Below the pieces are notes generated by a model. That model worked only from the letters and a program-made list of their open reading frames with translations. It was not told the origin of the DNA and did no database searches. Source: Dehalococcoidia bacterium (GTDB lineage Bacteria; Chloroflexota; Dehalococcoidia; Plut-88900). Taken from it: DNA of 64,000 nt. The DNA lies in NCBI GenBank assembly GCA_965197585.1, contig OZ240215.1:1056001-1120000 (forward strand), written 5' to 3'. Shown one piece after another: positions 61,707-64,000 of this stretch (position 1 is the stretch's first letter; each line of letters begins with the position of its first letter). The position numbers were made by a program, and so were the translations under genes.

Positions 61707-61791
61707 GGTGATCCCCCACCCCCGCGCCTCGCTCGACCCTCCGATGCTCTCGGCCAAAGGCGGACTCACAGCCCGATCGGGGCCGGGAATG

Positions 61792-61808
61792 ATCCGCCTG
61801 AGGCGGAC
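61792..61808. repeat. Short palindromic REP-like element, also present inside rnpB (30965-30981)
   Basis: ATCCGCCTGAGGCGGAC is the exact reverse complement of GTCCGCCTCAGGCGGAT in rnpB. Confidence 0.5.
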
Positions 61809-61828
61809 AGGCTCCCCTCGGGGGGGGG

Positions 61829-63217
61829 TTATTCATAGCCTTTTCTGAGGCGGCCGGTGGCGCGGCGGGGGATGTAGTGGGAGGCGTGGACGAGGAGGGC
61901 GAGGGAGGATAGGAAGTCATCGTGGCCTTGGGATGGTTCTACGAAGAAGTTGATGGTCTGGTTGGGTCTGATTACGCTCCTTGCCTTAGAGATTTGGGAC
62001 CAGAATTCTTGGGACTCGGGGGAGCCGTCGGGCTTGTAGATTTGGAGCCTGCCGGAGTTGACAGAGGCCAAGAGGTCAAAGCCGAGGTCGGACTTGCTGC
62101 GGGCGGTGAAGGTGAAAGGTTTGACGATGGAAGATCCTAGACGTTTGCGCAGGAAGGCGGCGACGCCTGCGCCTATACCGGTGGCGTCGACGATAACTCT
62201 GCGGCAGCCCCATTTTTCTTTGAGGATGTGGACGAGGGACGAGAAAATCTCGGTATGGGGCCTGCCCGTCCACCAGTGGTGCTCGACTACCCGAAGGGAG
62301 GGGAGCACGAACCCGCTTCCGTCGTCGAGCGAACAGAGTTCGCCAATGGTGACGACGGTGGAGTCCCGTAAGGGCTCGTTGGCCCTGAGCCCGCCGTTAG
62401 CGGGCCCGTCTGACTCGCCAGCAAGGTCTATGCCGGCGACGTATGTGCGCTGAGCAAGGGGAACGCGTAAGCGGCAGTGGTTGCCTTGGAGAAGGGCCAG
62501 CCGCGTATTATCCAGGAACCTTCCATCGTTGGAGACGGGAGTGAGGCAGTACTGGGAGAGGAAAAGGGGGTGATCGCTACCGAGGCGGACCCGTTCAGCC
62601 TCGACGTAGCGTTTGTAGTGAGGGTTGAATTTGGCGACGGCCTGCCAGTCGAACTCGAAGTGGCGGCGGATGCCGTCTGAGCGTTGGAGTTCGAGGTTTG
62701 ACTGCTTGGACTGTTCGAGGAGGGAGTCTTCGTCCCAGGCGGTGCCGTAGTGGACGGTGGTGACGTTGGAGGATGCACCCATAGGCATGAAGTCTCGGTT
62801 GAACTTATCAGGAGATACGTCCTGGGATTCATCTACTTCCAATAGTGTGTCGGCGGTGTTGCCGACGACGTTGCTGGAGGGGTGGGCACTGAGAAATAAC
62901 TGGCGGGCGCGGTGTAAGTGAAAAGTGCGGCCGAGCTTGGAGTAATAGGGGGCTAGGCAGGCGCGGTCCATGACCTGTTGGAGGCGAGAGATGCTGATGT
63001 TGACCTGCGGGTCAAAGGTAGGTGCGGCCTTGATGGCGGCACCACCGACCTGGGAGAAGGCAGTAAGCAGGTAAGCCTCAATATGGGCGGATAGCTCGTT
63101 CTTGCCGCCCTGTCGGGCGATCATGACGGAGAAGGATAGGCCCTTGCGATGGCGGACGCTATCGATGACGGCAGTGGCTATCTCCTGCTGGTAGGGCCTG
63201 AGATCGTGAAGGGTCAC
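61829..63217 (-). CDS. Phage terminase large subunit-like protein
   Basis: LRPYQ Q-motif, ARQGGKNE Walker A, LEVDE Walker B, YGT coupling motif; RNase H-like nuclease GIDLA, VDATGIG, HDD. GTG 63217 overlaps the upstream stop. Confidence 0.85.
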   Translation of the reverse strand: MTLHDLRPYQQEIATAVIDSVRHRKGLSFSVMIARQGGKNELSAHIEAYLLTAFSQVGGAAIKAAPTFDPQVNISISRLQQVMDRACLAPYYSKLGRTFHLHRARQLFLSAHPSSNVVGNTADTLLEVDESQDVSPDKFNRDFMPMGASSNVTTVHYGTAWDEDSLLEQSKQSNLELQRSDGIRRHFEFDWQAVAKFNPHYKRYVEAERVRLGSDHPLFLSQYCLTPVSNDGRFLDNTRLALLQGNHCRLRVPLAQRTYVAGIDLAGESDGPANGGLRANEPLRDSTVVTIGELCSLDDGSGFVLPSLRVVEHHWWTGRPHTEIFSSLVHILKEKWGCRRVIVDATGIGAGVAAFLRKRLGSSIVKPFTFTARSKSDLGFDLLASVNSGRLQIYKPDGSPESQEFWSQISKARSVIRPNQTINFFVEPSQGHDDFLSSLALLVHASHYIPRRATGRLRKGYE

Positions 63218-63435
63218 CAAGGGGTGACTCCGGCGATGCCGAATACGAACTGGAGCATGGCGGCGACCATTACGAAGAAGAAGAGGATGTTGATGCGGCC
63301 CTTGACCTCGGCGACCTGCTGTTGAAGTTCTGCGAGACGCATTTCAAGGACGGCGTCGAAGGTGGATTCGGGCCGGATGGCGGGAGGCGCGACGGTGTGG
63401 GGTTTGCGGTTGAATATGTTCATCGGGTTAATCAT
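63214..63435 (-). CDS. Small coiled-coil + C-terminal TM protein (holin/hemolysin XhlA-like architecture)
   Basis: RLAELQQQVAEVKGRIN followed by a hydrophobic helix; coupled to both neighbours by 4-nt overlaps. Confidence 0.65.
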   Translation of the reverse strand: MINPMNIFNRKPHTVAPPAIRPESTFDAVLEMRLAELQQQVAEVKGRINILFFFVMVAAMLQFVFGIAGVTPW

Positions 63436-63830
63436 GCGTTTTCGTTCCAGGGGATTCTGTCGAGTCCCAGAGTGTCGGTGGCTTCTCTGAGCATGTTCTC
63501 GATGGCCTTGCCGTCAGGGTCCTGGGAGTCTCCAGAGGCACGTATCTTGGCGGCGTAGGCGCGGATAAGGAGTTCGATAACCTTGAGTATTCGGGGCTCG
63601 TTTTTGACTATATTGACAAGGAGTCCTCTGAGGCGAAAACGGAGGAAGGCGACTTCCTGGTCGATTCCTTCGATCACCCCTGCTTCTGCGAGGACTTCTC
63701 TCATTTCATCGATCAACACAGAACCGTAGAAGGAGTCACCCGGGACGCCGGGATTGCGGGCGCGGCGACCCCGGGGTTCCTTGGACTCGGGGCGCGGGTT
63801 GGGTAGGGGGTTGGGGGTCTTTCTGGTCAT
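63432..63830 (-). CDS. Putative terminase small subunit
   Basis: Basic N-terminus (RGRRARN...FY), then helical GIDQEVAFLR; sits upstream of the large subunit; GAAAGGA RBS. Confidence 0.55.
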   Translation of the reverse strand: MTRKTPNPLPNPRPESKEPRGRRARNPGVPGDSFYGSVLIDEMREVLAEAGVIEGIDQEVAFLRFRLRGLLVNIVKNEPRILKVIELLIRAYAAKIRASGDSQDPDGKAIENMLREATDTLGLDRIPWNENA

Positions 63831-63912
63831 TCGGCAGTCCTTTCGATCTTTTCGTCAATTCAGCTTGTTCCGGCAAGGGGCCCGGCCCTTATGCGGGCCC
63901 GAGTCGGAGTGC

Positions 63913-63942
63913 AATATAGAATATGTGTACTAGGTTAGTCAA
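63913..63942 (-). promoter_or_regulatory. sigma70-type promoter of the terminase operon with LexA-like box in the spacer
   Basis: Minus strand TTGACT-18 nt-TATATT. AGAAT-ATGT-GTACT (63918-63931) resembles the Gram-positive/Chloroflexi GAAC-N4-GTTC box, with 2 core mismatches. Confidence 0.55.
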
Positions 63943-64000
63943 TGGGTCCGTGTCACTTTTGGGTGGCGGGCTCGCGCGAACCGATCCTACGGGAGGAGAG

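Follow-up and report, generated by a model that had tools for sequence, protein, structure and literature searches.

A terminase cassette among housekeeping genes of a Dehalococcoidia chromosome and its possible place in a gene transfer agent-like system

Why should a bacterial chromosome keep an intact DNA-packaging operon between housekeeping genes? The question is raised by a stretch of 64,000 nucleotides (nt) from a Dehalococcoidia bacterium (hereafter the window; G000:C1:1056001-1120000 of the single-contig, 3.43-Mb genome G000, with window positions counted from its first base). Near the end of the window, three minus-strand genes encode a 132-residue protein (P132), a 73-residue tail-anchored protein (TM73) and a 463-residue large terminase (TerL). 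A preliminary description of the sequence regarded them as a stand-alone, possibly SOS-controlled operon and proposed either a packaging motor whose structural genes lie elsewhere, as in a dispersed gene transfer agent (GTA), or a repurposed nuclease/ATPase. The explanation that we favour, and consider probable, is that the host maintains a GTA-like head and packaging system, likely under SOS control, in which the window operon is a spare terminase cassette. More broadly, the phage-derived capsid system found in many Chloroflexota chromosomes may be an undescribed GTA-like machine.

The window operon and its portal-linked copy

A second copy of the operon (copy 2) is located 1.75 Mb away in the same genome (2872262-2874517) and shares 81–83% DNA identity with the first, promoter included. 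The TerL and TM proteins of the two copies are 77% and 90% identical, respectively, and both terL genes are open. On the 3′ side of copy 2 are found genes for an SPP1-type portal (phrog_64, E 1.9e-27), a scaffold-like protein (p161), an epsilon15-type capsid protein (phrog_212, E 8.9e-75; NF045672, MCP_gp7_epsi_15, E 4.5e-62), an SU10-type adaptor, which passes the PF24175 (SU10_adaptor) cut-off, and a 662-residue protein (p662); housekeeping genes follow. The protein p662 falls near a “phage tail protein” cluster and Sipho_Gp37 in the Atlas (score 0.93), which we take as a lead only. G000 has one copy each of the portal and capsid genes. The structural genes were thus correctly predicted to lie elsewhere, at a head locus at 2.86 Mb, and “stand-alone” holds for the window locus but not for the genome, which contains this portal-linked second copy. 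Nor is the window operon the only packaging motor: a terminase operon also belongs to the head locus, which makes the window copy a duplicate specific to the genus. All 18 TerL copies of the genus form one fully supported clade, which indicates that the extra copies arose within the genus. Codon alignment of the two G000 copies gives ratios of nonsynonymous to synonymous divergence (dN/dS) of 0.27 for TerL, 0.34 for the TM protein and 0.87 for P132.

TerL (61829..63220, minus strand) is intact and contains an ATPase and an RNase H-like nuclease domain. Its AlphaFold model, with a predicted local distance difference test (pLDDT) score of 87.7, has the terminases of HK97 (E 1.3e-17), T4, D6E and Sf6 as top Foldseek matches; these span both domains at full length, and Foldseek gave 97 matches in all at E ≤ 1e-3. 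In 14 homologs from different families, R36, Q37, G39, K40, D130, E131, Y158, G159, T160, D265, D345, D434 and D435 are invariant. We take R36, Q37, G39 and K40 to be the Walker A residues, and D130 and E131 the Walker B residues, of an additional-strand catalytic glutamate (ASCE) ATPase, and the acidic D265, D345 and D434/D435 are situated in the nuclease domain. The TerL profile matches the nuclease domains 5tge and 5m1f (E 3.5e-4 to 7e-4), to which the model aligns with Foldseek TM-scores of 0.71–0.77. In Pfam and NCBIfam nothing scores above the curated cut-off for the window protein, and its best PHROG, phrog_5909, is a weak match (E 7.1e-6); the homolog at locus L037 passes Terminase_6C (33.9 bits, cut-off 22.6). 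The nearest TerL among isolated phages, that of Bacillus phage vB_BboS-125, is 33.8% identical. Motifs and predicted fold together indicate that this family is divergent, yet still a real large terminase.

P132 (63432..63830, minus strand) is a putative small terminase or recognition subunit by virtue of its position: of 60 loci retrieved from the genomes of relatives, 37 have a homolog of it directly 5′ of TerL. The predicted structure comprises four helices and a basic, disordered N-terminus. No match was obtained in Pfam, PHROGs or NCBIfam, nor by profile against Protein Data Bank (PDB) sequences, and the earlier label “TerS-like” is not borne out by any family, profile or fold match. P132 is the fastest-evolving protein throughout, with a dN/dS of 0.43–0.96. 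TM73 (63214..63435, minus strand), as read from its sequence, has a coiled-coil-like N-terminal part and a single C-terminal hydrophobic helix. It has no family match, although homologs are present in 28 of the 60 loci, and a holin-like role would be a guess.

The three genes overlap consecutively. The stop codon of P132 and the start codon of TM73 share the sequence ATGA, and the start of TerL, either TTG at 63220 or GTG at 63217, overlaps the TM73 stop. The 5′ leader (63831..63912, minus strand) contains a GC hairpin at about 63900-63884 and a ribosome-binding site, GAAAGGA, at 63844-63838, and is conserved between the copies. At its 3′ end the operon runs head-on against a UbiA gene (PF01040; 60801..61706, plus strand), itself preceded by a phosphoenolpyruvate (PEP) carboxykinase gene, across a gap of 122 nt. 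Homology to copy 2 stops 13 nt beyond the TerL stop, within the convergent spacer (61727..61828), where repetitive extragenic palindromic (REP)-like short repeats are located. On the other side, 58 nt separate the −35 hexamer from the end of the window, and the sequence past base 64000 contains REP-like hairpins followed by genes for a pyrroloquinoline quinone (PQQ)-like beta-propeller protein, YidC and Jag, that is, housekeeping genes only. No tRNA was found past the window end and no att-like repeat around the cassette, and the nearest G000 matches to IMG/VR integrases, at 0.76 and 0.89 Mb, are distant from both copies. The housekeeping flanks, the lack of a tRNA and the remoteness of the integrase matches show that no prophage lies on either side of the operon. 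Its composition is host-like: among 2.1-kb windows of the genome, whose overall GC content is 0.593, the operon ranks at the 39th percentile for GC (0.588), and its tetranucleotide distance is at the 25th percentile. The preliminary description had reported translational coupling, an intact TerL, a convergent UbiA gene, host-like composition and no adjacent phage genes, all of which agree with these results.

Some further features of the two loci deserve mention. GC-rich palindromic REP-like repeats are found on both sides of the cassette (window 61727-61823; genome 1120000-1120071) and in very many further places across the genome. The flanks have only local hairpins and no long inverted repeats, and the idea of an invertible cassette was rejected. 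A perfect TTGACA-17-TATAAT promoter just past the window end (genome 1120156-1120184; L001 3828-3856, plus strand) is aimed at the beta-propeller gene, in the opposite direction from the operon. The head cluster of G000 is interrupted by an extracytoplasmic function (ECF) sigma/anti-sigma pair, by a gene for a cupin and by a duplicated piece of the portal gene. The pair, an ECF sigma factor with a zf-HC2 anti-sigma factor, lies between the portal and scaffold genes (L009 10048-11626; G000 2866048-2867626) and is found at the same place in G004-G008 and G011, and throughout this family; the cupin insertion is flanked by the duplicated C-terminal fragment of the portal gene (2868388-2868567). 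A divergent N6/N4 methyltransferase gene is located 5′ of copy 2.

A promoter module with LexA-type boxes

The sigma-70-type promoter noticed earlier, TTGACT-18 nt-TATATT (63913..63942, minus strand), was recovered by a promoter scan with 10 of 12 matches. By match alone this is weak, as the scan returned two promoter-like sites in 3.4 kb against 1.0 ± 0.9 in shuffled sequences. Both hexamers are kept in 8 of 8 aligned genus copies. A GTGACA element about 10 nt 5′ of the −35 (63951..63956, minus strand) forms part of the same promoter module and is present in the aligned genus promoters, in 36 module copies of G000 and 5′ of the P132 homologs of other families. The spacer between the hexamers is filled by a LexA-type operator-like box, TAGTACACATATTCTA (63917..63932), which has two mismatches to TAGAACNNNNGTTCTA and shares 14 of its 16 bases with the box in the distal recA promoter. 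The LexA-like box of the preliminary description therefore exists, at 63932..63917, albeit in degenerate form.

Comparison with the SOS genes of the genus supports the resemblance that a recA/lexA motif scan had been expected to reveal, the window box being similar to the operators of the G000 lexA, recA and DNA-repair genes. In 5 of 6 genomes of the genus, lexA has a perfect box, GAACGCCCGTTC, as its own operator just past the −10, and in G008 the operator is a GTAC variant; an exact box is found 5′ of a TIGR03916-like DNA-repair radical SAM gene; and the distal recA promoter contains TAGAACACATATCCTA in G000 and G005, a close variant in G001 and none in G007 and G008. In the latter two genomes the recA upstream regions (L168, L169) contain tandem TTCAATCAA(T/C)G repeats instead of a LexA-type box. 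The LexA protein of Dehalococcoides is reported to bind a box of the Gram-positive type. Across the class, a LexA-type palindrome, TAGAAC-N4-GTTCTA, recurs near cluster promoters: the 60 cluster loci, 1.16 Mb in total, contain 69 sites with at most one mismatch to TAGAACNNNNGTTCTA, which are spread over 48 loci and lie 5′ of P132/TerL, portal or scaffold genes, and the entire 3.43 Mb of G000 contain 3.

A regular expression for the complete module (GTGACA, −35, box and −10) returned 37 sites in G000, from which that at 989388, without GTGACA, was dropped. Four of the remaining 36 drive real genes, namely both terminase operons, the scaffold–capsid operon and a third P132 homolog at 1.869 Mb; six precede decayed terL-fragment repeats; and 26 have no recognisable gene downstream. 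The last group may be dead cassettes or drivers of small RNAs. The 36 copies (GTGACA, TTGAC, box, TATATT/TATTAT) are followed by a conserved AAGGAGG leader, for example at 671192, 889255, 1286499 and 2184843. The third P132-family gene (117 residues; G000 1867758-1869774, L011 and L180) stands alone behind the same promoter module and adjoins a gene for a 453-residue DNA methyltransferase fused to an IscB/Cas9-like HNH domain.

These elements suggest how the system might operate. The window operon, which duplicates the packaging part of a phage-derived head set as a genus-specific paralog, would be co-transcribed as a packaging cassette composed of P132, the presumed recognition or small subunit, TM73 and TerL. 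With the module common to both terminase operons and to the scaffold–capsid operon, DNA damage would remove LexA and turn the terminase and head operons on together. Either terminase could then load DNA into procapsids made from the 2.86-Mb locus, and the window copy would serve as a second enzyme with a divergent P132, from which the host might draw some benefit. The product would be a GTA-like or PBSX-like particle.

Inheritance of the head set and turnover of the cassette

The TerL tree (70 rows) requires 26 changes for 26 family labels, the minimum being 25, and shuffling of the labels gave a mean of 49.7 changes, with 0 of 200 shuffles as low as 26. Comparison of this tree with the host lineages, a check suggested at the outset, thus shows that TerL follows the host families. 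A portal gene is found near TerL in 49 of the 60 loci, and 18 loci, representing 8 families, have a HIT gene, with or without an HD gene, 5′ of the cluster, in most cases in one orientation. Between G000 and G005, the synonymous divergence (dS) of the cluster genes, 0.09–0.32, equals that of their flanks, 0.19–0.40. The tracking of host families by the TerL tree, the HIT/HD synteny and the equal dS of cluster and flanks support vertical descent. In the same comparison, dN/dS is 0.057 for the portal, 0.081 for the capsid protein, 0.14 for p662 and 0.23 for TerL. An integrase-like match lies beside one of the 60 genomic loci (G401) and beside none of 11 further genus loci, and integrase families gave no match among 123 open reading frames in six loci. 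The head set is chromosomal, integrase-less, vertically inherited and under purifying selection.

The distribution of the system was tallied with profiles at E ≤ 1e-20 in genomes at least 90% complete, the unpublished G214 and G433 included. A first sample had TerL in 33 of 41 genomes (11 of 11 from the same family, and 21 of 29 other families). Among 401 Dehalococcoidia genomes, 276 have TerL, mostly as one copy and without stops, in 146 of 207 genera, and 232 have the capsid protein, mostly single-copy. The family tallies of the two profiles run in parallel (both 0/34 in f22, 21/23 in f6 and 31/34 in f16). In other Chloroflexota classes TerL was detected in 56 of 178 genomes, in an all-or-none-like manner by family (12/15 in f100 and 6/7 in f94, against 0/14 in both f87 and f91). 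Family f41, with small complete genomes, has TerL in 8 of 8 sampled. The capsid alignment has a mean column identity of 74% across families. Capsid and terminase genes are situated tens of kb to Mb apart, and still open, in G001, G037, G062 and family f6, so that the dispersed, GTA-like layout envisaged for the window genome recurs in other lineages.

In 7 of 9 genomes from the genus of the window, a cassette occupies the site flanked by UbiA on one side and by the beta-propeller and YidC genes on the other, in either orientation; from G003 and G006 only the portal-linked copy was fetched. Full-length terL genes number two to four per genome; none is listed with stops, and 0 stops were found in 10 loci checked. 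Compared with the syntenic copy in G001, the window TerL has a dS of 0.48, its flanks 0.35–0.78, and a dN/dS of 0.25. An operon that is intact and kept at the same site in relatives agrees with its earlier characterization as host-maintained. For the portal-linked TerL of G001 (L056), two matches had suggested a frameshift; the cause is a tandem duplication of 20 residues (RHFEFDWQAVAQHNPHYQ...) that keeps the reading frame and coincides with the point at which dispersed terL fragments start.

Several observations weigh against a host-maintained, SOS-controlled system of this kind. The core of the window box, GTAC-N4-ATTC, has two mismatches to the Bacillus-type consensus GAAC-N4-GTTC, given as the Bacillus SOS box in PMC4234289. 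Of 8 genus terminase promoters, 5 have such a box and 3 do not, and sites within two mismatches occur in G000 at about chance frequency, the expected number being a rough estimate. Foldseek searches with the P132 model against PDB and BFVD returned nothing at E ≤ 1e-3. The head cluster has only the adaptor and p662 after the capsid gene, with no recognisable gene for a tail tube, fibre or lysis. In G055, alone among the listed genomes of genus g45, TerL is present and the capsid profile finds no match. Integrase matches are found in 42 of 80 IMG/VR loci with TerL relatives, as well as in G401. As regards the cassette itself, the TerL dN/dS of 0.25 exceeds that of the flanks (0.07–0.16), and TerL is broken in G010. 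In the comparison with G005, the closest relative, where the orientation is opposite, the window TerL has a dS of 0.64 and the flanks 0.06–0.18, which indicates that the cassette was exchanged and is not orthologous there. Finally, the genus contains dozens of decayed terL fragments, with 10–36 partial matches per genome. Fragments and turnover suit a selfishly duplicating cassette as well as they suit a host function.

In its full form, this alternative supposes that the cassette spreads by recombination at short repeats and that the window copy is a roleless by-product bound to decay, selfish or neutral; we regard it as rather unlikely, and it is the most serious competitor. It would account for the multiple full and partial copies, for the replacement between G000 and G005, for the mixing of copy type and locus type on the TerL tree, for the absence of TM73 from the cassettes at the UbiA–YidC site in five other genus genomes, for the high dN/dS of P132 and for the six fragments that retain the cassette promoter. 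The fragments themselves differ evenly over the three codon positions (0.26, 0.23 and 0.28) and 59 of their 70 indels are not multiples of three, which shows that they are non-coding. They belong to a repeat family derived from mid-terL (about residues 195-375), of 65–76% nucleotide identity, with some 15 places in G000 (504616-505506, 1445662-1446645, 3022210-3023283 and 3034007-3035107 are examples), and some contain internal tandem duplications. Against a roleless copy stand the full-length genus genes, which are all open, the invariant catalytic motifs, the occupation of the site in 7 of 9 genomes and the dN/dS of 0.25 at a dS of 0.48 relative to G001, a divergence over which an unconstrained gene would not stay open. 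The preliminary description had named patchiness or decay among close relatives as a sign against host maintenance, and the answer is divided: the site is widely occupied, and there is turnover between close species together with decayed fragments.

A capsid-free role for a repurposed ATPase-nuclease, in defence or post-damage DNA repair for example, is improbable. It would explain a locus without structural genes and an SOS-type box in its promoter, but a PADLOC defence search with six proteins, the three from the window among them, gave no match, TerL, 77% identical to the portal-linked copy, belongs to the same genus clade and gives no sign of a new domain, and the promoter module is shared with the capsid operon. 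This part of the original proposal gained no support.

Mobile relatives do exist. In total, 360 IMG/VR contigs encode TerL relatives of 49–57% identity in a compact gene order, and tyrosine integrases are located directly 5′ of P132/TerL in L193, L221 and L259 and further away in L238. This fits domestication from small integrative podovirus-like elements, and some genomic copies may still be prophages. The least probable reading is that the window operon itself belongs to a temperate phage that is still active, or to a capsid-forming satellite, which integrates at a conserved site and owes its wide distribution to infection. These relatives and the integrases in IMG/VR and G401 speak for it. 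Against it, no integrase adjoins either G000 locus or 59 of the 60 genomic loci, searches around the cassette revealed neither a tRNA nor an att-like repeat, host genes interrupt the cluster, its parts are far apart in many genomes, its dS is that of its flanks, the TerL tree tracks host families and the window copy consists of three genes only.

The preferred reading, a host-maintained GTA-like system with the window operon as a spare terminase cassette, can be extended, tentatively, into a broader scheme. An ancient, vertically inherited and LexA-controlled GTA-like system of podovirus origin might be widespread in Chloroflexota with its parts scattered, and in the window genus interchangeable terminase cassettes might use the fast-evolving P132 to choose the DNA that enters shared capsids.

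Comparison with known systems

GTAs are known from a few lineages, namely Alphaproteobacteria, Bartonella, Brachyspira, Desulfovibrio and Methanococcus. A literature search, which did not extend to the supplement on “known tailed proviruses” of the preprint on IME1, found no GTA in Chloroflexota and no such head cluster in Dehalococcoidia. The Dehalococcoides element IME1 is a different, filamentous-type element (10.64898/2026.09.15.751708).

If particles are made, they would allow genes to be exchanged within a large and mostly uncultured phylum that includes organohalide-respiring bacteria, and the system would be a clean case of SOS-linked podovirus domestication. The occurrence of several terminase cassettes together with a hypervariable small protein raises the question of how packaged DNA is chosen. 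If the genes are silent, they show how long phage head genes can persist intact without a known use.

The GTA of Rhodobacter capsulatus (RcGTA) shares with the Chloroflexota set a phage-derived stock of head and packaging genes that lacks integrase and replication genes, a fixed chromosomal location, vertical inheritance over a large clade, purifying selection, dispersed loci and apparent host regulation. They differ in that the Chloroflexota set is podovirus-like, with its epsilon15-type capsid and SU10-type adaptor, whereas RcGTA is siphovirus-like; in the lack of recognised tail tube, tape measure or lysis genes; in the probable control by LexA instead of CtrA or quorum sensing; and in the several terminase cassettes per genome of the window genus. 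The epsilon15- and SU10-like podophages have capsid (NF045672) and adaptor (PF24175) families in common with the cluster, in which no nozzle, fibre or core genes were recognised. The capsid-forming phage-inducible chromosomal islands (cf-PICIs) are likewise small and encode their own terminase, portal, capsid and connector and no tail, and the integrase-bearing IMG/VR relatives are similar to them; cf-PICIs, however, contain integrase and replication modules and occur sporadically, whereas the genomic loci described here lack an integrase in 59 of 60 cases and follow the host phylogeny. PBSX of Bacillus subtilis is also a chromosomal, non-replicating remnant, which is induced by DNA damage and packs host DNA. 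It is myovirus-like, with a full tail and a lysis module, and is confined to close relatives, whereas the Chloroflexota cluster does without those modules and spans a phylum.

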